Below are positions 5,231-36,186 of a stretch of 64,000 nt of DNA, one piece after another (position 1 is the stretch's first letter; every line of letters starts with the position of its first letter). The stretch lies in assembly GCA_951812755.1 (NCBI GenBank), contig OX638329.1, positions 2,982,522 through 3,046,521 of the forward strand, written 5' to 3'. The position numbers were made by a program, and so were the translations under genes. Origin of the DNA: an uncultured Latescibacterota bacterium. GTDB lineage: Bacteria; Latescibacterota; UBA2968. Below the pieces are notes generated by a model. The model had not been told where the DNA came from. It did not search any database and saw only the letters and a program-made list of their open reading frames with translations.

Positions 5231-5601
5231 AGGTCAAACAAGATGATTTGTGCGTGGACTGAACCGGCTTGGCTGTGGTATTCGGGATTTTCGTTCATGG
5301 CGAGAAATAGCGGGCCTTCGTAGGGCGAATAAAAATCGAAATAGTTGCCCACCGAAAGAATAGGGCTGTCGGCAATGCGCCCGACGAGTGCCCCCACATT
5401 TGTGCCGGGCAGGAGATATTGATCATTGGCGGGACGCCCTTCAATGCCATCGGGGCCACACCAGACAATGGTAAGCGGACGCATCTCGGGAGACCAGAGG
5501 CCCTCTGCAGTGATGATTACGCGCTGGTCTTTTTGTATCTGGAGGTACATTTCTTGCCATACGGCGTTTGGGCGAACGGTCTTGGTAATTGTGAATGCCA
5601 C
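5227..5601 (-). CDS. small PA-IL-like (LecA-type lectin fold) protein, tentative
   Basis: Segments 'IVWCGPDGIEG' and 'GALVGRIADSP' resemble PA-IL; start set to GTG 5601 preceded by AGGAG; 4-bp overlap with the permease start. Confidence 0.3.
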   Translation of the reverse strand: MAFTITKTVRPNAVWQEMYLQIQKDQRVIITAEGLWSPEMRPLTIVWCGPDGIEGRPANDQYLLPGTNVGALVGRIADSPILSVGNYFDFYSPYEGPLFLAMNENPEYHSQAGSVHAQIILFDL

Positions 5602-5687
5602 AGTTTCTCCTCGGTTTTGGGTGTAAAACGGCTCGCAAAGTACGCCTGTCAAAAATACTTGTCAAGCGGAAAATTTGGAGAAATAAA

Positions 5688-5715
5688 TTGACTCAAAATG
5701 CATAAGATTTATATT
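5688..5715 (+). promoter_or_regulatory. putative sigma70-type promoter for the bactofilin gene (-35 TTGACT, 16-nt spacer, -10 TATATT)
   Basis: Hexamers at 5688-5693 and 5710-5715, upstream of RBS AGGAGA (5741-5746). Confidence 0.3.
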
Positions 5716-5751
5716 AGGTGCCCGTTGAAAAAATTTCAGAAGGAGAGATCC

Positions 5752-6165
5752 GTGGATCGCAACGCAAATTTTGACAAGACCATGAACACCATTATTGGGC
5801 GTGGAGCTGTTTCTGAAGGTCATTTTCAAATTGAGGCTGGCGTGCGTGTGGATGGGGTCTTGAAAGGCGAACTCGAGTCATCCGGAACGCTGATTGTGGG
5901 AACGTCGGGTGTTGTTGAGGCCAGTGTGAAGGTGCGCGACGCATTGGTCAGTGGGCGCATTGTGGGGAACCTTGTGGCTGAGGAGAAGGTTCATTTGCAG
6001 TCTAAAGCCACTTTTATTGGAAAAATTCAAACGGGTGTCTTGATTGTTGAAGATGGTGCTGTTTTTAAAGCCGACTGCGATGCGGGCAGTGAGATACAAG
6101 AGGTTGATCAGACCGAGAAAGAATCACCAGATGAAACACAGAAGGCACTGCGCGAGGAAGCGTAG
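5752..6165 (+). CDS. bactofilin family protein
   Basis: 'GTLIVGTSGVVEASVKVRDALVSGRIVGNL' repeats typical of bactofilin; GTG 5752 five nt after AGGAGA, in frame with ORF 5698..6165. Confidence 0.6.
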   Translation: MDRNANFDKTMNTIIGRGAVSEGHFQIEAGVRVDGVLKGELESSGTLIVGTSGVVEASVKVRDALVSGRIVGNLVAEEKVHLQSKATFIGKIQTGVLIVEDGAVFKADCDAGSEIQEVDQTEKESPDETQKALREEA

Positions 6166-6185
6166 TGCCTTCTATAAAAGACGCA

Positions 6186-6238
6186 AAACCCCAAGCGATC
6201 GGTACGATTTGCCGATTGACTGGGGTTTTTTTTATCGC
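6186..6238. terminator. bidirectional stem-loop terminator between the convergent bactofilin and RND genes
   Basis: 'AAAACCCCA...ATCGG..CCGAT...TGGGGTTTTTTTT'; T8 run on the + strand. Confidence 0.45.
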
Positions 6239-9200
6239 GCGCGGGCTACGGCTGTAACGCGCTTGGCAAATTGCGAGAGATCATCCATGAGGGAATAGAC
6301 CGTAGGCAAGAGCACAAGGGTCAGGATTGTTGAGATAGATAGCCCGGAAATAACCACCAGACCAATTGGTCCCCAGCGCCTTGAGGTGCCTTCGGCATTG
6401 CCAAAGAGCATCGGCAATACCAGGGGCATCAGGCCAATAATAGTGGTGGTAGCGGTCATCATAATCGGACGCAAGCGGTCCTGGCCGCCACGGATAATAG
6501 CATCGCGACGAACAAGCCCCTGTTTTCGATATCTGTTGATGTGATCAACCAGGACAATGCCGTTGTTGACCACAATGCCAAAGAGAACGAGAAGGCCGTA
6601 CTTGGCATTGCTGTCCATAGCGATTTTGAAGGTGTAGAGACCGAGCGCGACGCCGATGAATGCGAAGAAGATGCAGAACATAATAGTGAGCGGATGGACA
6701 TAGGATTCAAAGAGCGAGGCCATGATGATGTAAATGAGAATAAGTGCCAGGATCAGGGTCTCATAGTCCTGGTTTTGTTCTGCATTCATAGATCTGAAGC
6801 GGCGATCCATTTCATACGTATATCCCTTGGGCAAGGGTACGCCTTCCATGCGCATTTTCATGATCTGGCCCACGCGAAATACCGCTTGCTGGTCAGTGTT
6901 GGCAAAAACGGTTACAGTTGACATGCGGTCTTCGCGTTGAATCGTGTTGCGGCCTGTTGTCAGGTCGAAATTCGCCAGGCTGGAGAAGGTGACCATGCCG
7001 CCGTTGTCGCTTTCAAATTCCGTTGTTTTGAGTTGTTCGAGGGTGGCGCGGTCTTCTTCGCGCAGCAGCACTGTGATGTCGATTTCGCCATCGGGGGTTT
7101 TGAAGTTGGAGCCACCGCGCGAACCGAGCGCAGAGGCGATGGTGTTTGCAATATCGCGCGGCGAGAGACCGTAGCGCTGTGCGCGCTCGCGATTGACTGT
7201 GACGCGAATTTCCTCGGTTCCGCTTTCGAGGCTGGTCTGTATTTCGTGAACGCCGGGCATCCCCTGCATGCTGGTTTCAATGTCTTCGGCCAAAATGGCC
7301 AGTGTTTCCTGGCTGCGTCCTTTGAGCTGAACGCCAGCCCCCACGGAAGAACTACCGCGGCCACCGCCAGATTTGAAACGCACGCCTGGAATGTCTTTGG
7401 GCAAGAGGGCGATAACTTTGCGCTGAACTTCATCTGTGGTGAGTTTGCCTTCGTCTGCCGGTGTGAGATAAAGGGTCAAGCGGGTACCGCGCCGACCGCT
7501 GTATCGGCTGCCAATGGCTTCGATGTCGAGTTCGTTTTTTAAGGGGATGAGTATGTCTTCGGCAATTTTGAAGATCTCACGCGCTTTATCCACATCGTAG
7601 CTGCGGGGCATTTCAATGGTGAGTCTTACAGCGCGACTGGGCTGATAGCGGAAGGGTTGTTGCTCTACTTTGCCGTAGATGTAGTTGCCGACAAAAAGAA
7701 GAACAACAGCCAGGGAGAGGGTTGCCCAGCGGTAGTGAAGGGTGGAAGAGACCAATTTGGCGTACATCGCTTTGGGACCGATTGCGCGGTAGCGAAAATA
7801 GAGAAAGATGACCAGTGCAATGATGCCGGGAAAACCAATTTTGGCAAATGCTGGCAACGCGCTGATGGTCGTGTTAAAATTTCCCCACAGGCCAGCGTAA
7901 TCAATTTTGCTGAAGTCCGTATAATAAATAAAGGCTCCCAGACCGAGCGCGGCTACAAGGCCGACAATGCTCTTGAGAACGCGATCAAGGATTTTACCAT
8001 CTTCATTGAAGGCGCGAGAGGCTGCAAGCGGAATAAGTGAGAGCGCGATACTAAATGAGGCAATAACAGATATGATTACGGTAACGGCAAAGTCGCGCAT
8101 GAAGAGCGAGGTACGCGAGTCGGTGACAAAAATGACCGGGATAAATACGCAGATGGTCGTGAGCGATGCAGCGAGGACTGGAAGACCGATTTCATCGCTG
8201 CCCTCGAGCGCGGCCTGTCTGGCATCTTGCCCTACTTCAAATCGTTTGCGAAAGATATTTTCAAGGGCCACGACCGCGGGATCGACGAGCATGCCGATGG
8301 CGACCATCAGACCCATCATGGAAATGAGATTGAGGGTGATGTTCGATCCGGATTGCCGCATGAAGTACATGATCAGGAATACGGTGAGCACACTGATGGG
8401 GATCGCAGAGCCGATAATGAGCGTACTGCGGAAGTTGCGAAGAAAAATAAAGATGGCGATGACGGCCAACAGACCACCCAAAATAGCAGATTGGCTGAGG
8501 CTGGTAATGCTATTTGTCACGTCGATGGATCGGTCGCGCACTATGTGCAGGCGGAGTTTGTCTTTCCCGACCTCTTCGTGGATGAGGGCGAGTTCGTCGC
8601 GCGCGAGTTTGCAGACATCGACCATGTTGGCCGTTGAGGCTTTCTGGATTTCAAGGGTTAGCGAAGGACGCCCGTCGAGGCGTTCAAAACGGCGGGATTC
8701 GGGATAATCGTATGTGACATCGGCAACATCGTCGAGAATGAGATTGGGGCGAATGGGCAGATCGCGAATTTGATCAACGGTTTCAAATTCACCCATGCTG
8801 CGAACAGCGAGACGTTTGTTGCCTTCGGTGACATATCCCGCAGAGACATTGATATTGTTGTTGTTCAGAGCGCGATTGATGGTGCGGAAGTCCATCTTAT
8901 AGGCTGTCATGGCTTTTTGATCGACTTCGATGAGGAGGTCTTTTTCTTCCAAGCCCTCGAGTACGACATTGGCGACACCTTCGAGACGCTGTATTCTGGG
9001 CAAGATCATTTGATTGAATACGTTGACGAGTTCCTGGTTGTTTTCACCAAGCCAGGTGAGAGAGTATTCGAGGATGGGAAAGTCTTCGGTGTCGAAACTG
9101 CGAATATCGATGCGATCGACATCGGCGGGCAGATCGGCGCGAACTTGATCGAGGCGGTCGCGGATGTGAACGCCGACGATATCCATATCGGCGTCCATCG

Positions 9201-9486
9201 CAAATTCCATGCCGACGCGCGCGCTGGAGCCACTCGATGAGGAACTGATGCTTTCAACGCCAGACATCGTGCCGAGGATTTCTTCGATGGGGCGCGTGAT
9301 GAATTGCTCAATTTCTTCCGGGGAAGAGGAGGGATAATTCACGGAAACAAAGATGCGCGGGAATGTCAGACTGGGCAGGTATTCGAGTGGCAACTTGAAT
9401 ACCGAAATAAAGCCCATCACCATAATACTAATTGCAACCATAATGGTGCTGATAGGTTTGTGTATGGCAAATTCGCTGAGTTTCAT
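6232..9486 (-). CDS. RND efflux transporter permease (AcrB/AcrD/AcrF family)
   Basis: 1084 aa with the 12-TM, two-large-periplasmic-loop AcrB layout; N-terminus 'MKLSEFAIHKPISTIMVAISIMVMG'. Confidence 0.85.
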   Translation of the reverse strand: MKLSEFAIHKPISTIMVAISIMVMGFISVFKLPLEYLPSLTFPRIFVSVNYPSSSPEEIEQFITRPIEEILGTMSGVESISSSSSGSSARVGMEFAMDADMDIVGVHIRDRLDQVRADLPADVDRIDIRSFDTEDFPILEYSLTWLGENNQELVNVFNQMILPRIQRLEGVANVVLEGLEEKDLLIEVDQKAMTAYKMDFRTINRALNNNNINVSAGYVTEGNKRLAVRSMGEFETVDQIRDLPIRPNLILDDVADVTYDYPESRRFERLDGRPSLTLEIQKASTANMVDVCKLARDELALIHEEVGKDKLRLHIVRDRSIDVTNSITSLSQSAILGGLLAVIAIFIFLRNFRSTLIIGSAIPISVLTVFLIMYFMRQSGSNITLNLISMMGLMVAIGMLVDPAVVALENIFRKRFEVGQDARQAALEGSDEIGLPVLAASLTTICVFIPVIFVTDSRTSLFMRDFAVTVIISVIASFSIALSLIPLAASRAFNEDGKILDRVLKSIVGLVAALGLGAFIYYTDFSKIDYAGLWGNFNTTISALPAFAKIGFPGIIALVIFLYFRYRAIGPKAMYAKLVSSTLHYRWATLSLAVVLLFVGNYIYGKVEQQPFRYQPSRAVRLTIEMPRSYDVDKAREIFKIAEDILIPLKNELDIEAIGSRYSGRRGTRLTLYLTPADEGKLTTDEVQRKVIALLPKDIPGVRFKSGGGRGSSSVGAGVQLKGRSQETLAILAEDIETSMQGMPGVHEIQTSLESGTEEIRVTVNRERAQRYGLSPRDIANTIASALGSRGGSNFKTPDGEIDITVLLREEDRATLEQLKTTEFESDNGGMVTFSSLANFDLTTGRNTIQREDRMSTVTVFANTDQQAVFRVGQIMKMRMEGVPLPKGYTYEMDRRFRSMNAEQNQDYETLILALILIYIIMASLFESYVHPLTIMFCIFFAFIGVALGLYTFKIAMDSNAKYGLLVLFGIVVNNGIVLVDHINRYRKQGLVRRDAIIRGGQDRLRPIMMTATTTIIGLMPLVLPMLFGNAEGTSRRWGPIGLVVISGLSISTILTLVLLPTVYSLMDDLSQFAKRVTAVARAR

Positions 9487-9574
9487 GGCTCCTCCTTTCT
9501 ACTAATACAATCTGCACGTCAGTTCATTTTGGCTTTGACGAAAATTGGATTGCGATTGTTCCCATTATGAGATT

Positions 9575-10084
9575 TCAAACAATGGTTTCCACAAATGCAG
9601 CGCTTTCGGGGTCGAGGCGGCGGTAATCGACGATCTCGTAGCGGTTGCCATCGGCGTCTCGCAGGATCACGCGTACGTCGTTAATTACGCGCACGTCGCG
9701 CTTGCTGCTGGGGATTTCAAATACGCGATGTCCGCGATCTGTTTCCACATCCCATGTGGGTACGTGAAAATTGGAAACAATGCTATTTATTTTTAGAATA
9801 CGCGGCATAAAATATGCCTGTTCGAGTGCTATTTCCAATGCATCTCGGCTGTCTGGGGCGAGATCGACCATGTCGCGCACTATGCCTATTTCACCGCCGT
9901 CTGAATCGTGGAGCACGATAAATTTTGTGGGCGCGTTGAGGGGAAAAGCGCGCTGCACGCCAATTCGCTCGTGGATTTTACCGCGCAGGTCGAGTGTGAG
10001 ATCGTCAAAATCGTCGAGATACAGGCGAATGTCGCGGGGCGAAAGAAGGGAGAGATCGCCGATCAGGTCTGGGTGTGAAGACAT
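9575..10084 (-). CDS. conserved hypothetical protein (possibly DUF1854-like)
   Basis: 169-aa ORF between the ABC exporter and RND genes, same strand; family name is from memory only. Confidence 0.35.
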   Translation of the reverse strand: MSSHPDLIGDLSLLSPRDIRLYLDDFDDLTLDLRGKIHERIGVQRAFPLNAPTKFIVLHDSDGGEIGIVRDMVDLAPDSRDALEIALEQAYFMPRILKINSIVSNFHVPTWDVETDRGHRVFEIPSSKRDVRVINDVRVILRDADGNRYEIVDYRRLDPESAAFVETIV

Positions 10085-10177
10085 GGGAATTAGGAATTAA
10101 AAATTAAAAATTAGGTAGTGGGGCCAAGTTCGTCTGTGAATGGGACTGAACCAATTGTACCCCGCTTCGTTGATTCG

Positions 10178-12475
10178 CTACCACGCGCGGAGTCTGGACA
10201 ATTCTGTTTGCATGTGGCAAAGACGTGCGTAAATACCATCATAGGCGATGAGTTCGGCGTGTGATCCCATCTCGGCGAGTTCGCCTTTGTCGATGATAAA
10301 GAGGCGGTCTGCGTGTTTGAGCGTGGAAAGGCGATGGGCTATGGCAAAGGTCGTGCGCCCTTGCACGAGTCTGTAAAGGGCTTCCTGAATCTGCGATTCT
10401 GTCTCGGTATCCATGCTGGAGGTGGCTTCATCGAGAATTAGAATGCGTGGGTTTCTCAGGATCGCGCGCGCAATGGAGATGCGTTGCCTTTCGCCGCCCG
10501 AGAGCCGAACGCCGCGTTCACCTACGGGGGTGTCGTAGCTATCGGGCAGGCGGAGGATGAATTCGTGGGCATTGGCTGTTTTGGCGGCTGCGACGATTTC
10601 ATCGAGTGATGCGTCGGGGTTGCCGTATGCGATATTTTCGGCTATCGGACCATTGAACAGAAAGGGGTCTTGCAGAACGACGCCGATCTGATCGCGCAGG
10701 GATTTGAGGGTGACATTGCGGATATCGCGTCCGTCGATTAAAATTGCGCCTTCTTCGATATCGTAAAATCTGCAAATCAGGTTGATCAGGGTGCTTTTGC
10801 CCGCGCCAGAATGTCCGGCGAGGCCGATCATTTCGCCGGGTTCAACGGTAAAATTGAGGTTTTTGAGAACGGGTTTGCCGGGTTCGTAAGAAAATGTCAC
10901 GTCGTCAAATTGGATGCGTCCTTCAATTGAGGGCATTGGGTTCGCGCTGCGTCTGTCGGTTACGTCGGGCTGTGTGTCGAGCACTTCAAAGACGCGCTCG
11001 GCAGAAGACGCGGCCCGCTGGAAGCGGTGGTTGAGGCGGCAGAGGCTTTCAACCGGGCCATAAAAACGCCACATGTACTGTGTAAATGCCACAAAGTTAC
11101 CCAATGTCAATGCGCCGTCGAGAACCGAGGATCCGCCCACGAGCCATATAATCAGTGTTCCCATAGACGTAATAAAAGCCATGACGGGGCCGAAGATGCT
11201 GCGAATGCCCGCAATTTTGATTTCACCCTTGAGGAGGTCTTCGCTGCGCGTCTGAAATTTACCCACTTCGCGGTCTTCCTGTGCAAAGGCTTTGACCACG
11301 CGCACGCCGGGAATGGTGTCGGCCAAGAGCGCGCTGATGGCAGCCCAACGCCGAAAGAGACCGCGGTAGGTGCGATGCAGGCGGTGACCAAATTTGAGGG
11401 TTGCAATAATCAGAAGGGGCGTGGGGATTAAAACGAGGGTGGCGAGTTTGACATTGAGCGTAAAGAGAATGCCGCATATAATGGCGATGGTGACGATGTC
11501 GCGGATAATTTCTTGCAGGCCATCGCTGATAAAATCCTGCAGGCGGCCCACATCCTGGGTGATGCTGGCCATAATGGTGCCGGTTTCGCGCTCGTTGTAG
11601 AAGCTGAGAGAATGGCGGTGGAGATGCCGATAGACCTCATTTCTGAGGTTATAGGTGATTTTCTGTCCAAGAACGGATAAAATATACGAGCGTATGGCGC
11701 GAAGACCCGATTGTGAGAGGTTGATCAGCAGGAGCAGGCCCACGAGGAAATAGAGGATTTCGTATCCGGTTGGCACCCCAAATATGCTGTTTGTGATGTC
11801 GCGGAAGAAGGTCGTTTCATAATTTGCAGAAGGTGCGAGTACGCCATCGATGAGGTCGCGCATCAAAAGCGGTGGGGTAAGGCCAATGAATGTCGAGGTG
11901 AGGAGCAGGACAAGACTCAGGGTTCCGAGTTTCCAGAAGGGACGCGCATAGGCGAGCAAGCGATACAGCAGTTTGCGGGTGTCGAGACAGTTGGTGCAGA
12001 CTCCCACCCTGCGCGAAATAATTGTGCCGCACACGTCACACCGTCTGCCCGAAATCGCGCGCCCAAGTTGGCCTTTGGCGATTTTGTCTTCGGTTTTACG
12101 CGCGTCTTTTACAAGGGTTTCAAGTTGGTGCGTTATCCGATTGAATTTCTGGTTCTGACCTTTGGTAAATCGCGCGAGGGTGGCGCCTGTGGTTCCGGTG
12201 CGGACTTTGAGCAAGCTGTTGCCAAACAGGTCTTTGACTTCGAGATTGGTAATTTCTGAAAGTGGGATGCGCTCTGTGTGTGGTGTCGAGTCGCCGTTGG
12301 GGCTAATTGCGAACAAGTGTTTGTCTGTGGCGAGGAGATAAGCAGTTCCGTACGTACCATCGAGACAAATGTCGGTACTGGCCGATAATTGGACGGTTTC
12401 GTGCGATGGGATAAGGCCATCTAAAATGTGCTGCGGAGGGATTTCCAGAAGATTTATCTCGGAACCGTTTGCCAC
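10178..12475 (-). CDS. ABC exporter, fused permease/ATPase with extra N-terminal domain
   Basis: 765 aa; Walker A 'GHSGAGKST', signature 'LSGGERQRISIARA', Walker B 'ILILDEAT'; six-TM core; about 170 extra N-terminal residues with 'CDVCG...CTNC'. Confidence 0.85.
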   Translation of the reverse strand: MANGSEINLLEIPPQHILDGLIPSHETVQLSASTDICLDGTYGTAYLLATDKHLFAISPNGDSTPHTERIPLSEITNLEVKDLFGNSLLKVRTGTTGATLARFTKGQNQKFNRITHQLETLVKDARKTEDKIAKGQLGRAISGRRCDVCGTIISRRVGVCTNCLDTRKLLYRLLAYARPFWKLGTLSLVLLLTSTFIGLTPPLLMRDLIDGVLAPSANYETTFFRDITNSIFGVPTGYEILYFLVGLLLLINLSQSGLRAIRSYILSVLGQKITYNLRNEVYRHLHRHSLSFYNERETGTIMASITQDVGRLQDFISDGLQEIIRDIVTIAIICGILFTLNVKLATLVLIPTPLLIIATLKFGHRLHRTYRGLFRRWAAISALLADTIPGVRVVKAFAQEDREVGKFQTRSEDLLKGEIKIAGIRSIFGPVMAFITSMGTLIIWLVGGSSVLDGALTLGNFVAFTQYMWRFYGPVESLCRLNHRFQRAASSAERVFEVLDTQPDVTDRRSANPMPSIEGRIQFDDVTFSYEPGKPVLKNLNFTVEPGEMIGLAGHSGAGKSTLINLICRFYDIEEGAILIDGRDIRNVTLKSLRDQIGVVLQDPFLFNGPIAENIAYGNPDASLDEIVAAAKTANAHEFILRLPDSYDTPVGERGVRLSGGERQRISIARAILRNPRILILDEATSSMDTETESQIQEALYRLVQGRTTFAIAHRLSTLKHADRLFIIDKGELAEMGSHAELIAYDGIYARLCHMQTELSRLRAW

Positions 12476-12562
12476 TGTTCAACTCCTGAGAAAAAGAAAG
12501 TGTTTACTTACTTATAAAGTTACTATAATTCGGTAAATGCGTCAAGACAAGATGGGAGTGGT

Positions 12563-12625
12563 ATCCGCAGAAAAAAACGCGAATAATTTGAGCGTTTTTC
12601 GCAGATGAACGCAGATAAAAAAAGG
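12563..12625. repeat. dispersed intergenic repeat, copy A
   Basis: 'CCGCAGAAAAAAACGCGAATAATTTGAGCGTTTTTCGCAGATGAACGCAGATAAAA' is near-identical to the reverse complement of 33569-33630. Confidence 0.6.
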
Positions 12626-12626
12626 A

Positions 12627-13364
12627 TCAAGCAGATTTGAAAATGCGACGCCACAGGGCGGGATGCTGAGACCGCTGCCAGGTTTTGAGACGCGATTGCC
12701 AGTCGTGTGGGCGTTCGGGCAGGAGGGGGAACCGCTTTTGTATGTATTCTCTCTGCGCTTCGATATCTACTTTGTCAATGGGTGCATAAGCTGGCAAAAG
12801 TGATCGGTTGACGAGTTGCCGCTTTTTGCTGGCTTCGATATTTTCGTGCGCGAGGCGCAGGTTTTCGAGGTAGTGGTATGTCAGGTCTCGCACCCGTGCA
12901 TTGTATTGTTTGCACAATTGGTCGAAGGTCCTGATGGTATCAAGGAGATCAGACGCGGGTGGTGTTTGCGTATTGGGGTGAAAGTCTTCTGGAAGTGCGT
13001 CCAGGCCGAGAGCTTCGCACATCTCTTTGTCATTGGAAAATGTGCGGATGAGTGTTTGCGCGAAGGGGCGAATTGCTTTTTGCAATGGCGCGATTTTTTC
13101 GGTCGCGTGTCGCAGGTGTTCTTCGGATTTTTTGAGGTATTCTTCCGCGTCTTTGCGCTCCTGGAGCTGTGCGGGAAGCACATTGTTGTCACGCAGGATT
13201 TTTCCCGCCATGCGATGTTCCGCATCGGGGCGGAAATACGCTTTTAAGTCGAGTGGCTTGCCTTTGCCGGGAATATCGGTATCGTCCGACACGGCATCGC
13301 GCAGCATTTCATCGGGCGTGCGCCTTTCGGGCTTTCCATCAGGCGTGCGTTTATATGATGGCAT
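12627..13364 (-). CDS. DUF1992-like protein (DnaJC28-like C-terminal domain), tentative
   Basis: 245 aa with 'IPGKGKPLDL' motif recalled for DUF1992. Confidence 0.4.
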   Translation of the reverse strand: MPSYKRTPDGKPERRTPDEMLRDAVSDDTDIPGKGKPLDLKAYFRPDAEHRMAGKILRDNNVLPAQLQERKDAEEYLKKSEEHLRHATEKIAPLQKAIRPFAQTLIRTFSNDKEMCEALGLDALPEDFHPNTQTPPASDLLDTIRTFDQLCKQYNARVRDLTYHYLENLRLAHENIEASKKRQLVNRSLLPAYAPIDKVDIEAQREYIQKRFPLLPERPHDWQSRLKTWQRSQHPALWRRIFKSA

Positions 13365-13402
13365 GGAGGTCTTTCCTTATGTTCCTGCACAGGAGCTTTT
13401 TG

Positions 13403-14086
13403 TCACTTCCAAAATCGACATCCAAAAGTAAAATTCACTGTGCCCGTTATTTGGTCGGCAACATCTTCGTTTCCTACCCGAAAAGGCATAAATTGAAAAC
13501 GGATTTCAGTGAAGAAACGAATATCTTTTTTGCGGGGGACAAATTCGCTGCCTACCCCAACTACGATGTTAAAATACAGGTCTGAGGATATATTTCGATG
13601 ATCGTTGGGACGAAAATGAAAGGCCCCCAGGCCAGCGTTCCAATACGGTGCAAATGACTTATTGGCTAAAATTTTATATCTAAATTCAAAGAGAAATGAA
13701 CTTAACCAACCTCCAGAATTAAATATACGGGATTCCCGGGTATTTTGCACATATCTTTGCGGCATGGAAAAGAAAGATCCGTATAAAACCAGATCTAATT
13801 TTTTATTCCCGATAAAGAACTCGCCGTTTACAGCTGGTCCCATCTGAGCACTGGCGAGATTGAAAGAGATATGGCAGACGTCACGAGGCTGGAAGTTATC
13901 AGATTGGAATAAGGCATCTAATAAGATATCTACAGGGTCGCATGGAAATTCGGTTTGGTTTATTATGGGAACTGAAACACCCGTCCCCAATCCAAATCCG
14001 ATATGGGCCTTTTGGCAATACGTGTTTGCAGGACAGCATATTGCGATCAATACTGCTAAAAGAATTTTTTTTATATTTGCGTACAT
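13403..14086 (-). CDS. outer-membrane beta-barrel protein, putative
   Basis: Signal peptide 'KKILLAVLIAICC', alternating aromatic/Gly strands, C-terminal '...FWK'; AT-richer than neighbours. Confidence 0.4.
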   Translation of the reverse strand: MYANIKKILLAVLIAICCPANTYCQKAHIGFGLGTGVSVPIINQTEFPCDPVDILLDALFQSDNFQPRDVCHISFNLASAQMGPAVNGEFFIGNKKLDLVLYGSFFSMPQRYVQNTRESRIFNSGGWLSSFLFEFRYKILANKSFAPYWNAGLGAFHFRPNDHRNISSDLYFNIVVGVGSEFVPRKKDIRFFTEIRFQFMPFRVGNEDVADQITGTVNFTFGCRFWK

Positions 14087-14333
14087 TCAATTTGTCTCAC
14101 TTCTTTACTATCATTCCGGACGACTATCTATTGTGATAACATCAAAATCCGTGCCTATTCGCCCGAGCGTGGGACAAGGTGTTGGTTTTTAAGAATTAAG
14201 TCATTTATTTATAGATAGTTAAATTTTCTGTCAGTGTAGAGCATTCCACTGTCGATAGTTTCGTGGTGTGGCATAAAAACCACACCTGTGGTCATTTTGC
14301 TACGTTTATTTTTTGTCATAGGAGAGATTTCAC

Positions 14334-15365
14334 ATGATCATTACACATGTTCGCGCAGTGCAGCCCGAAGCAGATCGCGCACCGGCAGGTTGGCGCGGAG
14401 ATATTGGGCAGATTCTGGTGCGGATTGATACGGATGATGGGTTGTCGGGATACGGCGTTGGCGGGGGTGGTGCGGCGGGTATTCACGTGGTTCAGACGGT
14501 GTTGCGCGAGGTGTTAATTGGCGCGAATGCCGGGGATGTCGAAGGGTTATGGGATGCGATGTATCGCCATACCGCGGCTTATGGTCGCAAGGGGATTGCG
14601 ATGATGGCGATTAGTGGTGTGGATTTGGCATTGTGGGATTTGCGGGGTAAGCGGGCGAATAAACCACTTGTCGAAGTATTGGGGGGCACGCGCATGGCGG
14701 TGCCGTCGTATCGCACGGGGTGGTCGCGAGATGGACTTGAGGGCGCGCTCGCATTGGGCTATAAGGCATTAAAATTTGGCATTGGTGGGATGGATCCCCA
14801 CAGTGAATTGGATGCCATAGCCGATTTTTTTGCAGATGTGCGGTCGGTCGTGGGTGATGATATTCAACTGATGTGCGATGCGTCAATGGGGTGGGATGTG
14901 GAGGGCACGTTGCGCGCTGCGGATCGGTTGGTCAAGTTCAATTTGGCATGGTTGGAAGAGCCGCTTTTGCCAGAGGATTTTGACGGCTATGAACGGTTGA
15001 TGCGCGAGAGTCCTATTCCAATTGCAAGTGGCGAGCACGAATATACGGCGCGTGGATTTGAGGATCTGATGCAGCGGGGATTACACGCTATTTATCAGCC
15101 CGATGTGTGCTGGTGCGGTGGGTTGACAGAGTTGGTGAAAATTTACAGGTTGGCGAAGGAGTACGATGTCGAGGTATGCCCGCATCGTGGAGGAGAGGTG
15201 TGGGCACTGCACGCGATTGTCGCGCTCGATCCCGATCCACTGGCCGAAAGTGGACGCCCCTGGATGACATGGGTGCGCGATCAGCCGGAAGTTATGGATG
15301 GCAAAATCGCGCCAGGTGAGGGACCGGGTTTTGGGGTGTGGTTCGATGATGACTTGTGGGGATAG
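14334..15365 (+). CDS. enolase-superfamily enzyme (mandelate racemase / muconate lactonizing family)
   Basis: 343 aa; RBS AGGAGA before ATG 14334; MR/MLE-like N-terminal capping and barrel segments. Confidence 0.75.
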   Translation: MIITHVRAVQPEADRAPAGWRGDIGQILVRIDTDDGLSGYGVGGGGAAGIHVVQTVLREVLIGANAGDVEGLWDAMYRHTAAYGRKGIAMMAISGVDLALWDLRGKRANKPLVEVLGGTRMAVPSYRTGWSRDGLEGALALGYKALKFGIGGMDPHSELDAIADFFADVRSVVGDDIQLMCDASMGWDVEGTLRAADRLVKFNLAWLEEPLLPEDFDGYERLMRESPIPIASGEHEYTARGFEDLMQRGLHAIYQPDVCWCGGLTELVKIYRLAKEYDVEVCPHRGGEVWALHAIVALDPDPLAESGRPWMTWVRDQPEVMDGKIAPGEGPGFGVWFDDDLWG

Positions 15366-15399: not shown

Positions 15400-15428
15400 T
15401 TGACACTCTTTTGGATTCGGGCTATATT
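15400..15428 (+). promoter_or_regulatory. near-consensus sigma70 promoter (-35 TTGACA, 17-nt spacer, -10 TATATT) for the MNT/HEPN pair
   Basis: TTGACA at 15400-15405, TATATT at 15423-15428. Confidence 0.45.
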
Positions 15429-15470
15429 GCTCGAAAGATCATGCTCATTTGTGAAACAAGGGATAGCCTG

Positions 15471-15845
15471 ATGGCACATTTTTTAGATACAACAAACACT
15501 GTCATTTCTGAAGCAATTATCAATCAGATTGTGCAAAAAATCGTGGATCATATCAATCCATTGAAAGTGATTTTGTTTGGATCTTATGCCAGGGGAACGC
15601 CTGCGAAAGATAGCGATCTGGATTTATTTGTGGTTGTCGAGTCGAACTTGCCCCGTCATAAACGGTCCGCAAAAATCCGTCTGCTGTTTGCACCGGCCCC
15701 TTGTCCTCTGGATATTCTGGTTTACACACCACAGGAAGTCGAAAGCTATTCAGGAGTGGTCAATCATATTGTGACAGATGTAATGACAACGGGAAAGATA
15801 TTGTATGAGCGATCCCCAGACGGAGTTTGCGCGCCAGTGGCTTAA
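15471..15845 (+). CDS. nucleotidyltransferase (MNT-type, antitoxin-like)
   Basis: 'VILFGSYARGTPAKDSDLDLFVV' is the Pol-beta NTase motif (GS...D.D); start set to ATG 15471. Confidence 0.7.
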   Translation: MAHFLDTTNTVISEAIINQIVQKIVDHINPLKVILFGSYARGTPAKDSDLDLFVVVESNLPRHKRSAKIRLLFAPAPCPLDILVYTPQEVESYSGVVNHIVTDVMTTGKILYERSPDGVCAPVA

Positions 15846-16200
15846 AAAAGCTGAAAATGATGTGATCACGGCGCGGCAAACCTTGGCATTAGAAGATGGT
15901 CCAACCGACACGCCGTGTTTTCATGCCCAGCAGGCAGTTGAAAAGTCTCTAAAAGCACTGTTGACAGCAAATGGTATTGTGTTTCCTTACACCCATGATG
16001 TGATTGCGTTGTTGGATATGTCCACTGTTTTACTGGCTGAACTGGCATGCTTTCGGGAAGCGTGTGCAGAGCTTTCGCCTTATGGTGTTGATGTGCGCTA
16101 TCCCGGCGATTTTGCGGATCCATCTCGGGAAGACGCCCATTCTACTCTGAAGGTCGCTGAAAAAATTATGTCTCTTGTAAAAAATAAAGTTGGTGAATAG
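15805..16200 (+). CDS. HEPN domain protein (toxin-like partner of MNT)
   Basis: 131 aa helical protein overlapping the MNT gene 3' end by 41 bp. Confidence 0.65.
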   Translation: MSDPQTEFARQWLKKAENDVITARQTLALEDGPTDTPCFHAQQAVEKSLKALLTANGIVFPYTHDVIALLDMSTVLLAELACFREACAELSPYGVDVRYPGDFADPSREDAHSTLKVAEKIMSLVKNKVGE

Positions 16201-28249: not shown

Positions 28250-31200
28250 CTACCTCCAGAATTTGGCAATCCTCATTGCTTGGCTGATCATTTCGTCCAT
28301 TTGTTCCGAAGATAAATCAATGCCATGTATGTCTTCCACCACATCGTAGAAGAAATCATCAATCTCGTTTTTTACGACATTTTGCGCGTCGCTATCGTTC
28401 CAAAAATCTACCTTCCAATTCCTTTCTATCGCGGTTTGAATGGCAAGCGTTGTTTTTATTGCTATGCCATCGGTCTGGCTTTCATCGATATCAATTTTTG
28501 AGAAACAGGGTTTAATTGCGCCAAAATATGCACAGGCTTCACGATTATTGCGAATCTCGTCGGGCACATCGTCGCGTTGAGAGCTTTCGACCTTATCGCG
28601 AATATCGCTCACCTTTTGCAGATAATCCAGGGCTAATATCCGTTGCTGCCTGAAATCGTCGATTGCCTCCTGAATGAGCTTTGAGAATTTCTCGTAAAAA
28701 GCAGGGTCTTTGTCCATGTTTTCGGTAATCTTGCGCTTGGTTGCATGCGCGATATGGTCGGCGTTTGCCGCTATATTTCGGGTGCGGTAGATGCCTCGCT
28801 CCTCTTTGACCACAGAAAAGGTGTTGTTATCAAAAATATCCACGGGATCGTTTAATTGGGTGACTTCGTTTGCCTGAATATGCGTGTTTAGCAACTTTTT
28901 AATTCGGGTGTCATAGTCGCCGTAATCAATGGCTTCGGCGTAGCGCAGTCTGACAGCCTGTCTCAGTTTCTCAAAACGCAAGAGATCGCTTTTGTAGCGT
29001 TTGAGTTGGGCCTCGTCGGTCTGCATAATGAACTGCTCAGATGAAAGCGCGATGGCAAGGGTTTTGCCGTATTCCGTGAGGCGTTCATAAAAATCTTCCC
29101 GCAATGCGTCATCGGATAGGAGGACTTCGTAGCGTTCTTCATCGCGGGAATTTTTAATTTCTTTGAATATATCCCAGAGGTCCGAGTAACGTTGCGGCAA
29201 TTTTTGTATTTCTTCCTGGATGGAGACCAGGACATTGGCGAGATCCGCTCTGTCAAAATCCGCAAGCGCGTCGTATTCGTTCAGTGCTTTGTCCAGTTCA
29301 CCCAATACATTGGCATAATCAACGACATAGCCAAATTCCTTATTTTCGTGTACGCGATTAACCCGGGCAATAGCCTGGAGCAATGTGTGTTCGCGCAACT
29401 TACGGCACAGATAGAGCACGGTATTGCGAGGCGCGTCAAATCCGGTGATGAGTTTATCTACTACAATCAAAATTTCCGGATCGTCCGCGTGTTTGAACTG
29501 TGCGATGATTTGTTTGTTGTATTGGTCTTCGGAACCATAACGAGCCATCATTTTGTTCCAGAACGCGTTGACCTCATCTGTTTCTTCGCCTACCTCTTCA
29601 TGCCCCTCTCGCGTATCCGGGGGAGAAATAACGACCTCCGATGAAATATCATTTATCTCATTGAAAAATTCTCGATACTTCAGGGCAGTCGCTTTGTTGG
29701 GTGCTACAAGTTGCGCCTTAAATGGGGTGTTCTGCCAGTTTACGCGGTAGTGTGTGCTTATGTCAAATGCGCGCATATAGACGACCTGGTCTGCCTGATT
29801 GAGTGCATCTGCACGGGAATATTTTCTTTTTAAGTCGGCTTTTTGTTGGTCTGTCAGGTTTACCGTATGGCGTTCGAACCACAAATCAACCGCGTTTTCG
29901 TTTTGCTCTATCTCTACATGCCGTCCTTCGTACAGTAGGGGAACCACTGCCTTGTCTTTGATCGCCTGTCGCACGGAATAGTGCGGTTCAATAAGACCTC
30001 CAAATCTAACAAAACTGTTCTTCTCTCTTTTGAGCAATGGCGTACCTGTGAAGCCGATGTAACAAGCATTGGGTAACATCTGCCTCATGCGCGCTGCGAG
30101 AGAACCGAAGTTTGTGCGGTGGCTTTCATCTACGAGGACGACAATATCCGCTGAATCATCAACGTATTTTTCAGCAGAAAGTGCCGTATCAAATTTATTG
30201 ATCAGCGTCGTGATGATACCCACTTTGTTTTTGATGTGTTTGACCAGATTTCGCCCGGTTGTCGCCCGCTCCATGTCCAGGCCACAGGCTGCGAAGGTGT
30301 TGCCCAGTTGTTTATCCAGGTCTTTGCGGTCTGTAACGAGAATCATTCGGGATTTATTCAGTTCGGAGTTCAGAGCCAGAGTACGCGCGAGCATGACCAT
30401 TGTGATGGATTTCCCAGATCCCTGAGTGTGCCAGACAATGCCGCCCTGGCGGCGTCCTGTCTTGTCTATTTGTTTGATGCGATTTATTGCGGAACGAACG
30501 AGAAAGAACTGCTGGTATCGGGCTATTTTCTTACTGCCAAGGTCAAAGACGATAAAGCCGTAAATGAGTTCCAACAGACGCTCTGGACGGCACAGGCTGT
30601 AAAGACATCTATCCTGTTCCGTGAGCAGTCGGTCTCCTGTGCTTTCAAGCGCGGCGAAGTGCGATAGCGCCAGAGCAAAATCGCCGCGGAATAGGGCGTC
30701 TTTGTCTTCAGCGGAAAGGGTTTTATTGATGCTGGCATTCACTTCGTGAGCAGAATCCTCCATTTCGTCCCATAAGCTCCAGAATGCCTTTGAAGTTCCC
30801 ACCGTTGCGTACTTCGCCTCATTTTTGTTTATAGCCAGCAATATTTGTGCGTAAATGAAAAGGCGCGGGATATATTCTTCGCCCTGATTGCGGATTGTTT
30901 GAGATATGGCCTGCTCAACATCCACATCGGAGCCTTTGCATTCGATTACAACAAGGGGAATACCGTTCACGAATAGTATAATGTCGGGCCTTGCGGTTTC
31001 CAGGCTGCGGGTGCGTTCAACAGAAAATTCCGCTGTGGCGTGAAACACATTGTTCGCGGGATTTTTCCAGTCGATATAGTTCAGGGTATAACTTTTGGAA
31101 TCGCTCTCGATGGTTTGTTCAAGTGATGTGCCAAGCGTTATCAGGTCGTAGATTACTTCATTTGTTTTTTGCAGACCATCGTATTGGATATTTTTGATTT

Positions 31201-31438
31201 TCTGAATGGCAGATTGAATATTCTCCTCGCTGAATAGATACAGACCGCCTTTGTAGTGAATGCGGTTTATTTTTTTAAGCTGATCGCGCAAGATGTTTTC
31301 CAGCAGAACATTTGAGGCACGACCACCGCGTTCTACCATCGCCTGCTCGGGGGGCAGATACCGGTAGCCCATGTTAATTAGCTGTTGCAGGGCAGGTATC
31401 TGGGAGAGGTGTTTTTCGCTGAATGGGAAGGTAGGCAT
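28250..31438 (-). CDS. hsdR: type I restriction endonuclease subunit R
   Basis: 1062 aa; helicase motifs ('HTQGSGKS', 'DESHR') and HsdR-like N-terminal nuclease region. Confidence 0.9.
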   Translation of the reverse strand: MPTFPFSEKHLSQIPALQQLINMGYRYLPPEQAMVERGGRASNVLLENILRDQLKKINRIHYKGGLYLFSEENIQSAIQKIKNIQYDGLQKTNEVIYDLITLGTSLEQTIESDSKSYTLNYIDWKNPANNVFHATAEFSVERTRSLETARPDIILFVNGIPLVVIECKGSDVDVEQAISQTIRNQGEEYIPRLFIYAQILLAINKNEAKYATVGTSKAFWSLWDEMEDSAHEVNASINKTLSAEDKDALFRGDFALALSHFAALESTGDRLLTEQDRCLYSLCRPERLLELIYGFIVFDLGSKKIARYQQFFLVRSAINRIKQIDKTGRRQGGIVWHTQGSGKSITMVMLARTLALNSELNKSRMILVTDRKDLDKQLGNTFAACGLDMERATTGRNLVKHIKNKVGIITTLINKFDTALSAEKYVDDSADIVVLVDESHRTNFGSLAARMRQMLPNACYIGFTGTPLLKREKNSFVRFGGLIEPHYSVRQAIKDKAVVPLLYEGRHVEIEQNENAVDLWFERHTVNLTDQQKADLKRKYSRADALNQADQVVYMRAFDISTHYRVNWQNTPFKAQLVAPNKATALKYREFFNEINDISSEVVISPPDTREGHEEVGEETDEVNAFWNKMMARYGSEDQYNKQIIAQFKHADDPEILIVVDKLITGFDAPRNTVLYLCRKLREHTLLQAIARVNRVHENKEFGYVVDYANVLGELDKALNEYDALADFDRADLANVLVSIQEEIQKLPQRYSDLWDIFKEIKNSRDEERYEVLLSDDALREDFYERLTEYGKTLAIALSSEQFIMQTDEAQLKRYKSDLLRFEKLRQAVRLRYAEAIDYGDYDTRIKKLLNTHIQANEVTQLNDPVDIFDNNTFSVVKEERGIYRTRNIAANADHIAHATKRKITENMDKDPAFYEKFSKLIQEAIDDFRQQRILALDYLQKVSDIRDKVESSQRDDVPDEIRNNREACAYFGAIKPCFSKIDIDESQTDGIAIKTTLAIQTAIERNWKVDFWNDSDAQNVVKNEIDDFFYDVVEDIHGIDLSSEQMDEMISQAMRIAKFWR

Positions 31439-31455
31439 TGCATTGTTCCTGTTTT

Positions 31456-31514
31456 ATCCGCAGATGAATATTATCCGCATATGAACGCAGATATTCGCAG
31501 ATAGAGGCAGATAA
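31456..31514. repeat. cluster of CGCAGAT-type motifs in the hsdR upstream region
   Basis: 'CGCAGAT' at 31459, 31486, 31496 and GGCAGAT at 31506 (10-bp spacing for the last three), CGCATAT at 31476. Confidence 0.4.
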
Positions 31515-32018
31515 AATTCTTGTGAAGCTGGAAGATTACGAGCTTATGACTCTGGTCTCTGATTCATCTCGCTTTGGCTGCATCTCCGTTTTCTTACACG
31601 ACTTCTCAATCATTATCGGTCGCTGGCCTATTGCCTTCTAATTGCTGAAAGCAATTTTTGTTGGGGTTGCATATTTAAGAATGTATGCGAGTTTTCGCAA
31701 ATTTCTGCTTTCCAACTCTTTTTTTGTAAACAGTACAAAAAATACTATAAATTCGTCACAGTCGATATATCCCGTGATTTCTTGACAAGGTAACTGATCC
31801 GAAGTCACTACTCTAATATATGTATTTCTTTTATCGGTTCTTTTAGCAATACTTCGGACAGTTTTTAGGTGTAAAGGTTCTTTGAAATCAACAGGTTAGA
31901 TGAGACCCCATGTTTTATTTACAAGTTAGCCCTATACCCTGAGTTTGATAAAAAAACTGACAATTCTATAAACCGTTGTATTATAGAAACTTAGGGTTTT
32001 TGACTAATTGGAAACCTA

Positions 32019-32129
32019 TCAAAAAGTGTCCGAACCATTGTTGGTGTTCAATCCATTTTTAAATTCCATAAATTCACCAAGCTGAACTTCCCGCCATCCC
32101 TTCGGCAACTGCCCATTTTTCACTGTCAT
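32019..32129 (-). pseudogene. orphan N-terminal fragment of an hsdS specificity-subunit gene
   Basis: 'MTVKNGQLPKGWREVQLGEFMEFKNGLN' matches the conserved HsdS N-terminus, then stop; followed by about 500 bp of AT-rich ORF-free DNA. Confidence 0.4.
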
Positions 32130-32166
32130 TCTATTATCCCCTGTTGAACTGTGCAGTACTTCTGGC

Positions 32167-32388
32167 TCACCAACTCTTTCCTTGCAGTTCCTTCGGGAAG
32201 AGCTTGCGGCTGGAGAGCCGGTCTTCATCTAAAACGTGAATAAGGTATTCGAGAGTTTTCCGCTGTTCGTCAGTATCGCCCTCATCCATCCATGACTGGA
32301 CCAACTGCACAAGACCGGCTGCACGGTCATCAGAAGTTTTGCTTTCACTGACAATCTCGGTAGGATTTTCTGAAAGCCTTTTATCCAT
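32167..32388 (-). CDS. hypothetical small acidic protein
   Basis: 73-aa ORF inside the R-M island; no recognisable motif. Confidence 0.2.
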   Translation of the reverse strand: MDKRLSENPTEIVSESKTSDDRAAGLVQLVQSWMDEGDTDEQRKTLEYLIHVLDEDRLSSRKLFPKELQGKSW

Positions 32389-32427
32389 ATCTCTGTCCTC
32401 TCATCTCATCGCTTTTGCCCTCCTGCT

Positions 32428-32775
32428 TTATGTCTTGACCGCCTGCAATTTCTCTGTTTCAGAAATCTCGCATTGTGGCGCGGGCAGTTGGGTGATGATG
32501 TTCGCAATCAGCGTCTCGTCCTTGTTTGACATGGCATTCGCCACATCTTGAGGATTGCTATGCGTCTTTCGCGCAAATTCTCGCGCACCGCCTTGTCCTT
32601 CAACAGCCGCACTGAATCCGTAATAAAGCGCGGCACCATCCGGATCTTTTTCGTGCTCTTCCAATAAGACTTCAAGGAAGGAGAGAGCTTTATCGATATC
32701 CGAAAACTTTTCGATTAAGTAGTCGCGGAAATCTATCATCTGTCTCATCGTTGGGTCTCCTTGTAATTTTGCCAA
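32428..32775 (-). CDS. addiction-module antidote protein (HTH antitoxin)
   Basis: 115 aa; 'AALYYGFSAAVEGQGGAREFARKTHSNPQDVANAMS' antidote-like; directly downstream of and overlapping the toxin gene. Confidence 0.55.
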   Translation of the reverse strand: MAKLQGDPTMRQMIDFRDYLIEKFSDIDKALSFLEVLLEEHEKDPDGAALYYGFSAAVEGQGGAREFARKTHSNPQDVANAMSNKDETLIANIITQLPAPQCEISETEKLQAVKT

Positions 32776-33080
32776 TAGGTTTTTGCGCGTTCAATGTCTC
32801 GCGTTTGGGAAGACTTATCGCCGCCGCAGAGCAACAGGACGATGGTGTTGCCGACTATACCAAAATAGATGCGATAGCCTGCTCCAAAATGGAAACGGGT
32901 TTCAAAAATACCGTCACCGACAGATTTCCAGTCGCCAAAATTGCCGCCCGCAAGACGACCAAGGCGTGCTTGAATCCGGTCCTGCGTTTTTTGATCGCGT
33001 GACTCAAACCATTCGGTGAAAGGCACTCGCCCATTTGAATGCTGGTAAATTTGCAGTTTTCTCGGTTGCGTAGCAAGCAT
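32745..33080 (-). CDS. RelE/ParE-family toxin (addiction-module killer type)
   Basis: 'FHFGAGYRIYFGIVGNTIVLLLCGGDKSSQTRDIERAK' matches the killer-protein C-terminus. Confidence 0.6.
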   Translation of the reverse strand: MLATQPRKLQIYQHSNGRVPFTEWFESRDQKTQDRIQARLGRLAGGNFGDWKSVGDGIFETRFHFGAGYRIYFGIVGNTIVLLLCGGDKSSQTRDIERAKTYWQNYKETQR

Positions 33081-33116
33081 TCTCTATCTGCCCTTTGCCT
33101 GACTCATGGTGCAATT

Positions 33117-33485
33117 TTAGGTCTCGACTGCCTGCAATTTCTCGGTCTCTGTTTCAGATGTCTCGCATTGCGTCGCGGGCAGTTGGGCGATGATGTTCGC
33201 AATCAGCGTCTCGTCTTTGTTTGACATGGCCTGCGCCACGCCTTGAGGATTGCAATGCGTCTTTCGGGCAAATTCTCGCGCACCGCCCTGTCCTTCAACA
33301 GCCGCACTGAATCCGTAATAAAGCGCGGCACTATTCCCGTCTTTTTGGTATTCTTCCAATTCCGTTTGAAGATAGGAGATGGCCTCCTCAAAGTCAGAAA
33401 GCCCTTCGATTAAGTAGTCGCGATAATTTCTCATTTCTCTCATCGTTAGGTCTCCTTGTAGTTTTACCAATAGGTTTTTGCGCAT
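33117..33485 (-). CDS. addiction-module antidote protein, second paralog (orphan)
   Basis: 122 aa, near-identical core to 32428..32775. Confidence 0.55.
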   Translation of the reverse strand: MRKNLLVKLQGDLTMREMRNYRDYLIEGLSDFEEAISYLQTELEEYQKDGNSAALYYGFSAAVEGQGGAREFARKTHCNPQGVAQAMSNKDETLIANIIAQLPATQCETSETETEKLQAVET

Positions 33486-33551
33486 TCAATGTCCCGTGCC
33501 TGCGAAGATTTGTCGCCGCCGCAGAGCAGGAGGACGATTGTGGCATCTGTA
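33486..33551 (-). pseudogene. 3' remnant of a duplicated RelE/ParE-like toxin gene
   Basis: Encodes only '...TIVLLLCGGDKSSQARDIECAKTYW*'; 5' part replaced by repeat copy B. Confidence 0.45.
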
Positions 33552-33568
33552 AATATCTTTTGATTTAG

Positions 33569-33630
33569 CCTTTCATCTGCGTCTATCTGCGAAAAACGCT
33601 CAAATTATTCGCGTTTTTTTCTGCGGATTC
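33569..33630. repeat. dispersed intergenic repeat, copy B (inverted relative to copy A)
   Basis: Reverse complement nearly identical to 12563-12625; supplies the last codons and stop of the RhuM-like gene. Confidence 0.6.
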
Positions 33631-36169: not shown

Positions 36170-36186
36170 ATTTTGTTACTCCATTA

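Follow-up and report, generated by a model that had tools for sequence, protein, structure and literature searches.

An ABC exporter-DUF1854 module linked to an RND permease gene in Latescibacterota

Introduction

The closest described system to the one analyzed here is a two-gene module composed of an ATP-binding cassette (ABC) exporter and a protein of the DUF1854 family. In the beta-proteobacteria Acidovorax and Cupriavidus, DUF1854 shows co-fitness with its neighboring ABC transporter as well as with cphA/cphA', and Price et al. proposed it as a subunit of an amino-acid polymer exporter, remarking on occasional fusions (bioRxiv 10.1101/072470). In our literature searches (on DUF1854/PF08909, on cyanophycin together with ABC transporters, and on Latescibacteria together with resistance-nodulation-division [RND] pumps) that study alone proved relevant, and co-fitness with cyanophycin-synthetase-like genes in two beta-proteobacteria is the sole functional clue to the module in the literature searched. 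Here we describe a stretch of 64,000 nucleotides from an uncultured Latescibacterota bacterium (contig OX638329.1, positions 2,982,522 to 3,046,521; the whole of this stretch is referred to as the window) in which the two genes of the module are followed by a gene encoding an RND permease.

Other systems offer points of comparison. MdtABC/MuxABC-type pumps combine one adaptor and two RND genes with an unlinked outer-membrane channel, and the mdtABCD operon of E. coli also carries MdtD, a single-component inner-membrane exporter of the major facilitator superfamily (MFS). Among ABC transporters, those of bacteriocin and type I secretion systems have C39 peptidase or C39-like domains as an N-terminal, cargo-recognizing accessory. 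Finally, the pleckstrin homology (PH)-domain proteins DdE and DdF are required for the ABC-dependent export of a leaderless bacteriocin, enterocin DD14 (PMC8657885).

Results and Discussion

The ABC-DUF1854-RND cassette

The cassette consists of three co-oriented minus-strand open reading frames (ORFs) spanning positions 6232-12475 in the order ABC, DUF1854, RND. The original prediction, made from the letters of the window alone, had described three co-oriented genes with gaps of about 90 bp, and this was confirmed: the gaps measure 93 bp between ABC and DUF1854 and 88 bp between DUF1854 and RND. The first two genes constitute an already catalogued two-gene module (PF08909; NF052233/NF052234; Price et al.). 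What is new here is the RND-coupled variant of that module, together with an all-PH architecture predicted for its cytoplasmic parts. The features concerned are as follows.

10178-12475, minus strand: ABC exporter gene, 765 aa (ORF; PF00664 and PF00005; NF052233 as best NCBIfam match)
9575-10084, minus strand: gene for the DUF1854 protein, 169 aa, soluble (ORF; PF08909)
6232-9486, minus strand: RND permease gene, 1084 aa, AcrB/MdtB-like (ORF; PF00873; MdtB 9lyq_B)
12098-12394, minus strand: PH-fold domain of the ABC protein, residues 28-126
11987-12040, minus strand: zinc ribbon of the ABC protein, residues 146-163, between the PH domain and the first transmembrane segment (TM1); CxxC-N10-CxxC

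One RND clade accompanies the module in most of the loci compared

A total of 81 loci were compared by tblastn with the window proteins, the genome matches being the best 80 of ∼378. They belong to Latescibacterota and Gemmatimonadota, come mostly from one phylum and are phylogenetically close. The ABC and DUF1854 genes were adjacent in all 81, and RND genes of a single clade lay within 3 kb of the pair in 61, downstream in 37 and upstream in 24. The synteny to which the original prediction had looked for support of its three-gene cassette was thus found, albeit in three different arrangements. The loci were distributed as follows.

RND starting within ∼300 bp downstream of DUF1854: 21 loci (with two tandem copies in L017)
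RND ∼2 kb downstream of DUF1854, past one inserted Rieske-domain gene: 16 loci
RND immediately upstream of the ABC gene: 24 loci
A different RND ∼3 kb away: 1 locus (L078)
No RND within the sequence compared: 19 loci

The upstream-type loci carry two RND genes, namely, RNDb, which adjoins the ABC gene, and a second, co-operonic one, RNDa. Their operon reads adaptor (a HlyD_D23/RND-type membrane fusion protein)-RNDa-RNDb-ABC-DUF1854, with gaps of -4, ∼4, ∼1-190, and 4 bp. This five-gene packing was observed in 22 loci, with -4 to ∼10 bp at three of the four junctions and up to ∼190 bp between RNDb and ABC. In a neighbor-joining tree, all downstream RNDs formed one clade whose sister was RNDb (44% identical to the window RND), and RNDa was distant from the linked RND clade.

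That the ABC-DUF1854 pair and the linked RND are functionally coupled seems to us about as likely as not, mainly because their adjacency persists even though the RND has changed its side and its partners, and because the five genes of the upstream-type operon are so tightly packed. Several observations weigh against such coupling. The linkage is not obligatory, since 19 of the 81 loci showed no RND within the sequence compared; one of them is L011, with an ABC protein that shares 87% identity with that of the window. Nor did an RND accompany the module in Poribacteria, in Limnochordales, or in the three distant metagenomic loci examined. Given that the loci come mostly from one phylum, the 61 linked ones represent only a few independent events, roughly the three arrangements, and the neighbor-joining tree of the RNDs carries no support values. 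The ∼90-bp gaps of the window are looser than the tight coupling of the sister clade. The cassette can also be interrupted, either by the Rieske-domain gene or by an insertion element: in L003, a relative with 98% identity in the ABC protein, the spacer between ABC and DUF1854 is split by an IS110-family transposase gene (PF01548 plus PF02371; 8341-9699). Finally, no conserved biosynthetic gene indicative of a substrate was found in the window or in the representative neighborhoods scanned.

The solitary occurrences of the module, the gaps and interruptions of the cassette, and the origin of every linked locus from related lineages would all suit a possible, if somewhat doubtful, alternative, in which the neighborhood reflects nothing but descent. 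The ABC-DUF1854 pair would then be a self-sufficient exporter and the RND an independent multidrug or toxin pump inherited alongside it in this phylum. Descent by itself does not readily explain why the same RND clade stays adjacent after changing side and partners, nor the tight packing of five genes in 22 loci, which is typical of co-translated operon partners.

The genes around the linked RND vary. In the 16 loci of the L019 type (e.g., L019 10564-12579), the inserted gene encodes a protein of 640-670 aa with an N-terminal Rieske [2Fe-2S] domain followed by ∼500 unassigned residues. In L017, L018, and L019, the three loci tested against Pfam, the RND is followed by a QueC gene.

The ABC exporter and its N-terminal head

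The ABC protein is a half-size exporter with an N-terminal PH domain, a zinc ribbon, a 6-TM exporter domain and a nucleotide-binding domain. PF00664 (159.1 bits, residues 186-474) and PF00005 (128.5 bits, residues 537-686) both matched above threshold, and since all four nucleotide-binding motifs are in place (Walker A at G554, LSGGE at 658, Walker B at 678, and the H-loop at 713), the protein can be taken from its sequence to be an intact exporter. Its best NCBIfam match, NF052233, scored 676.6 bits, under the cut-off of 880, and aligned over nearly the full length (residues 20-758 with model positions 25-745 of 766). Because this 766-position model aligns from residue 20, the ∼170-residue N-terminal extension is a family trait; its region was recovered by tblastn in essentially every locus whose contig covers it, including those of Poribacteria and Limnochordales. 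A word-indexed homologue search with residues 1-182 gave a single protein and was replaced by searches with the full-length query and by tblastn on the loci.

The N-terminus is predicted to adopt the PH superfold, a seven-stranded closed beta-sandwich capped by a C-terminal helix. The Pfam model bPH_3 (PF14470) gave only 14.1 bits (E, 0.069) against a threshold of 23 bits, and several homologues at 62-65% identity carry precomputed PF14470/PF03703 matches. Between this domain and TM1, the four cysteines C146xxC149-N10-C160xxC163 were invariant in 27 homologues and also in a second alignment. They are predicted to form a metal-binding zinc ribbon, for which the Zn_ribbon_3 match was weak (E, 0.029, below the Pfam threshold) and the confidence of the structure model only ∼70. 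The original prediction had proposed a PH-like fold and a zinc ribbon in this region, and both readings were borne out by the predicted fold and the invariant cysteines; the spacer that it had given between the two CxxC pairs, 13 residues, has to be corrected to 10.

This architecture recalls the C39-type ABC exporters, which are likewise half-size, belong to the same fold class and carry an extra cytoplasmic N-terminal domain before TM1; on the ABC core of the window, models of the HlyB and bacteriocin types reach 300-420 bits. The accessory is nevertheless of another kind, a PH fold plus zinc ribbon instead of the papain-like C39 domain, and the window contains neither a HlyD-type adaptor nor an identified leader-peptide substrate gene. 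The enterocin DD14 system, compared here by description, is similar in that PH-domain proteins are genetically required for the ABC-dependent export of a cytoplasmic product. It differs in having a monoderm host and a known cargo, a leaderless bacteriocin, and the PH modules of the window are instead fused to the ABC protein or contained within DUF1854.

The DUF1854 partner and the two-gene module

The 169-aa protein matched PF08909 with 129.9 bits (gathering threshold, 26.8), its residues 38-166 covering model positions 1-128 of 130. Its best NCBIfam match, NF052234, scored 92.9 bits, under the cut-off of 150, and sequence and profile searches of the PDB with DUF1854 returned nothing below an E value of 0.1. 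The domain is predicted to fold as two PH-like halves. From its sequence, DUF1854 is the soluble partner of the ABC exporter, with a predicted cytoplasmic localization. The position of this partner is indicated by P0338, a natural fusion of 1013 aa from the library of representatives that joins the PH/ribbon region, an ABC core 40% identical to that of the window and a C-terminal DUF1854 in one chain. DUF1854 is thereby placed at the C-terminal, nucleotide-binding end of the ABC protein, and the fusion would be a useful construct for structural work on the module.

The module is widespread and occurs in several phyla. A profile search of 1.84 billion representatives returned 2,511 DUF1854 clusters (at 50% identity) at an E value of ≤1e-3, and 1,755 at ≤1e-10. 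In the three distant metagenomic loci, one of them labeled Phycisphaerae, the two genes were adjacent in two cases and one gene apart in the third. The window shares with the module of Price et al. both the gene order and the architecture, that is, ∼170 N-terminal residues, an exporter core and a separate DUF1854 protein of ∼165 aa. The extra N-terminal domain and the small protein noted in the original prediction are thus no peculiarity of this locus, being the defining parts of a catalogued module (NF052233; Price et al.). The window departs from the described module in that both proteins fall below the equivalog cut-offs, no cphA lies nearby, and the module has an RND pump linked to it (in relatives, an adaptor and two RNDs), a context absent from Price et al.

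The NCBIfam matches bear on a further explanation, according to which the cargo of the pair would be cyanophycin, a similar polymer of amino acids or the dipeptides thereof. The best matches of both proteins are "cyanophycin metabolism-associated" equivalogs, in line with the co-fitness of the pair with cphA/cphA' in Acidovorax and Cupriavidus (bioRxiv 10.1101/072470). We find this explanation very improbable here, given that both scores remain under the curated cut-offs (676.6 versus 880 and 92.9 versus 150) and that no match to cyanophycin synthetase, cyanophycinase or isoaspartyl dipeptidase was found among the scanned ORFs of the window or of the representative neighborhoods. The cyanophycin link was rejected for this locus on both counts.

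The RND permease

The third protein was correctly recognized in the original prediction as an AcrB-type permease: PF00873 covered it at full length with 653.5 bits in two stretches, passing the gathering threshold in both halves, and the nearest solved structure is MdtB (9lyq_B, 322 bits). The NCBIfam RND models stayed under their cut-offs (594 versus 1250 for the multidrug RND permease subfamily; 360.8 and 357.1 versus 1584 and 1774 for the MdtB and MdtC equivalogs). Besides this structural homologue, the likeness to mdtABCD extends to gene order, since the sister-clade operon also consists of adaptor-RND-RND followed by an inner-membrane exporter. In the window, by contrast, there is a single RND and no local adaptor, and the exporter is the ABC-DUF1854 pair, not an MFS protein.

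In AcrB, the proton relay is formed by the triad D407/D408 (TM4) and K940 (TM10). This triad is missing from the window RND. Its TM4 (residues 398-410) reads VD402-P where CmeB and MdtB have VDD, and its TM10 (residues 968-984) contains VVNN where MexB and MdtB have Lys, so that VDP and VVNN replace the VDD and K-N of the MdtB/AcrB relay; the Arg-x-Arg-Pro motif of TM11 is retained. Among 58 linked RNDs the TM4/TM10 variant showed strict conservation; RNDa is similar (VDN/VVNN). A second peculiarity lies between TM6 and TM7, where two additional hydrophobic segments (residues ∼503-525 and ∼544-562) could form an added helical hairpin. The insertion, ∼45-55 residues longer than the corresponding region of RNDa or MdtB, is common to the L019-type RNDs and RNDb.

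The missing adaptor

No family of the HlyD or OEP type was found in the non-overlapping ORFs of at least 140 aa of the window, which covers 64 kb of a ∼6.5-Mb genome, and tblastn of the adaptors of five relatives against the window gave a best E value of 0.33. Searches of the 20-kb flanks of the 37 downstream-RND loci likewise yielded no adaptor in any of them. Since it extends from the window to the flanks of all 37, the local absence of an adaptor is a stable trait of the downstream-RND clade.

Such a trait could indicate a truly adaptor-independent RND in the clade of the window, one that would move its substrate only to the periplasm or the outer leaflet, as do monoderm members of the RND superfamily, SecDF, and HpnN. 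The lack of the D407/D408/K940 triad and the two additional TM6-TM7 segments would fit such a pump, as would the absence of an adaptor from the window and from the flanks. We nonetheless consider this distinctly improbable, because RNDb, which has the same TM4/TM10 motifs and the same segments, is operonic with an RND-type adaptor, and because unlinked adaptors and orphan RND genes are common. For the same reason, the relay variant and the TM6-TM7 insertion were rejected as signs of adaptor independence, RNDb having both and RNDa sharing them in part.

An adaptor gene adjoins the sister-clade RND in 22 loci. As the closest sister-clade homologue of the window RND is thus operonic with an adaptor, "adaptor-less" describes the local gene content of one clade and is no sign of an adaptor-independent pump. 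The original prediction was right that the window holds no adaptor gene; as a general property of the cassette, this is contradicted by the five-gene operon of the sister clade. The prediction had named an adaptor and outer-membrane pair beside another copy of the RND as the finding that would count against it, and half of such a pair was found: the adaptor stands beside RNDb, and no outer-membrane factor is linked in the upstream-type operon, given that the gene 5' of the adaptor is divergent. The lack of a linked outer-membrane factor, which had also been called atypical, is in fact ordinary, as E. coli acrAB and mdtABC both rely on an unlinked tolC. For RND biology the result is therefore mostly deflationary, the absent adaptor being a local feature of one clade and not a new type of pump.

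The adaptor of the sister-clade operon was also considered as a partner of the ABC exporter, in the manner of type I secretion. This possibility was rejected, since its Pfam matches are those of RND-type adaptors (BSH_RND, Beta-barrel_RND_2, and RND-MFP_C).

A possible two-stage export route

We propose, at a probability that we judge to be about even, that in the three-gene unit an RND pump has been coupled to an already existing inner-membrane exporter of two components, so as to form a two-stage export route. In the first stage, a homodimeric, half-size ABC exporter driven by ATP would move a substrate made or accumulated in the cytoplasm across the inner membrane or into its outer leaflet. 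The cytoplasmic face would present three PH-type modules per protomer set, namely, the N-terminal PH domain of the ABC protein, tethered to TM1 by the zinc ribbon, and the two halves of DUF1854. In the second stage, the MdtB/C-like RND would take the substrate on the periplasmic side and pass it outward, with an adaptor that the sister clade encodes within the same operon; in the clade of the window, adaptor and outer-membrane channel would both be encoded elsewhere.

PH-superfold domains often bind peptides or acidic ligands. Together with the precedent of DdE and DdF, this suggests that the PH-type modules most likely recognize or gate the cargo; the zinc ribbon would take part in the same function. 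The direction of transport and the order of the two stages are proposed in the same conditional sense. The prediction that the cytoplasmic face of the transporter is built of PH-type modules is testable, and the wiring of the module into RND efflux operons in one lineage is an argument for release of its product to the outside of the cell and not only into the periplasm.

A more far-reaching version of the two-stage route, which we regard as unlikely, is that the ABC-DUF1854 pair and its dedicated RND clade form, in Latescibacterota and Gemmatimonadota, a purpose-built trans-envelope secretion line for a cytoplasmic product, in which the triple-PH module would select or gate the cargo and the RND of the window's clade would have dispensed with a dedicated adaptor. 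If true, this would amount to a previously undescribed hand-off from ABC to RND and provide the first functional handle on the DUF1854 family of ∼1,750 clusters.

Neighboring genes were inspected for clues to the substrate. Genes of the enolase superfamily (MR_MLE) turned up close to the module in the window, in L041-type loci and in Poribacteria. As they formed no single family upon clustering, and as such genes may be numerous in these genomes, their presence was taken as coincidence. QueC, PhyH, Rieske, glycosyltransferase, and OGG-like neighbors were also set aside, each being clade specific.

Transcription unit and upstream gene

The following features were found around the cassette.

12522-12550, minus strand: sigma-70-like promoter candidate, TTGTCT-17-TATAGT (consensus scan, 9/12 match)
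12563-12616, no strand assigned: 54-nt intergenic repeat with a hairpin (GCGAAAAACGC...GCGTTTTTTTC; window-wide BLAST of spacers)
12627-13364, minus strand: DJC28_CD gene (DnaJC28 conserved domain, DUF1992-like; PF09350, 30.7 bits)
6185-6229, no strand assigned: hairpin whose 18-nt arms are 83% complementary, with a T-rich tail behind it (inverted-repeat search and direct reading)

The ABC gene starts with GTG, 7 nt downstream of AGGAG, and the RND gene with an ATG preceded by AAAGGAGG. The promoter candidate lies ∼47 bp 5' of the ABC start codon and is a pattern match only, 14 sigma-70-like sites having been found across the region against 8.1 expected. No terminator-like site was found in either internal gap of the cassette. 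The spacer between ABC and DUF1854 (10085-10177) holds a short AT-rich periodic run, taattttt aattttt aattcct aattccc. Past the RND stop codon, the hairpin at 6185-6229 falls between the convergent RND and bactofilin genes and is probably a bidirectional terminator that closes the transcription unit. With a promoter-like site 5' of ABC, no terminator-like site inside, and a hairpin plus T tract after the RND, it is plausible that the three genes are co-transcribed as a single unit.

The DJC28_CD gene is co-oriented with the cassette and lies 151 bp 5' of the ABC gene, the hairpin repeat being located within those 151 bp. In L011 and L018, both tested against Pfam, a gene of the same family directly precedes the ABC gene, and an ORF cluster of 16 loci has a gene of ∼250 aa upstream of ABC that may be of this family. 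The gene is thus a conserved neighbor in the clade of the window, and its membership in the cassette unit is uncertain. Farther upstream, a co-oriented gene at 13403-14086 encodes a 227-aa protein without a Pfam match.

Repeats and other features of the window

The 54-nt repeat upstream of the ABC gene (CATCTGCGTnCATCTGCGAAAAACGCTCAAATTATTCGCGTTTTTTTCTGCGGAT) matches positions 33575-33628 at 96%. A split copy occupies 37519-37547 and 37731-37760, its parts separated by ∼183 bp, and a partial copy lies at 31476-31492. The copies lie mostly in the neighborhood of the type I restriction-modification region. The copy next to the cassette stands just past the DJC28_CD gene, and its internal hairpin is terminator-like. 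The original prediction had noted a repeat copy in the putative promoter region of the cassette. The copy is real, but a role in control of the cassette was rejected owing to its lack of conservation in relatives, as a repeat occupies this position only in L001, L003, and L012, the closest relatives among the 81 loci. We regard the repeat as a young dispersed intergenic element. A local repeat search of positions 5600-14400 yielded only short repeats at chance level.

The restriction-modification island extends over 28250-37339 and comprises HsdR (28250-31438), a RhuM-family gene (33600-34658), HsdM (34655-36169), and an HsdS-like gene (36689-37339). Between 31439 and 33600 there is no ORF of at least 140 aa, and the GC content dips to 0.45-0.47 in the 28- to 32-kb region. 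Two overlapping genes at 15411-15845 and 15805-16200 encode a nucleotidyltransferase (NTP_transf_2/Polbeta) and a HEPN protein, in the layout of an MNT-HEPN toxin-antitoxin module.

Tandem sulfatase genes and a BNR_4 protein are encoded in the window (37737-40795 and 44796-46094) and in related loci. Many isolate names of related metagenome-assembled genomes (RHO, IRC, COS, SB06xx, and Plut) resemble labels of sponge metagenomes. Taken together, these genes and labels suggest that the source lineage is sponge associated or a marine polysaccharide degrader.

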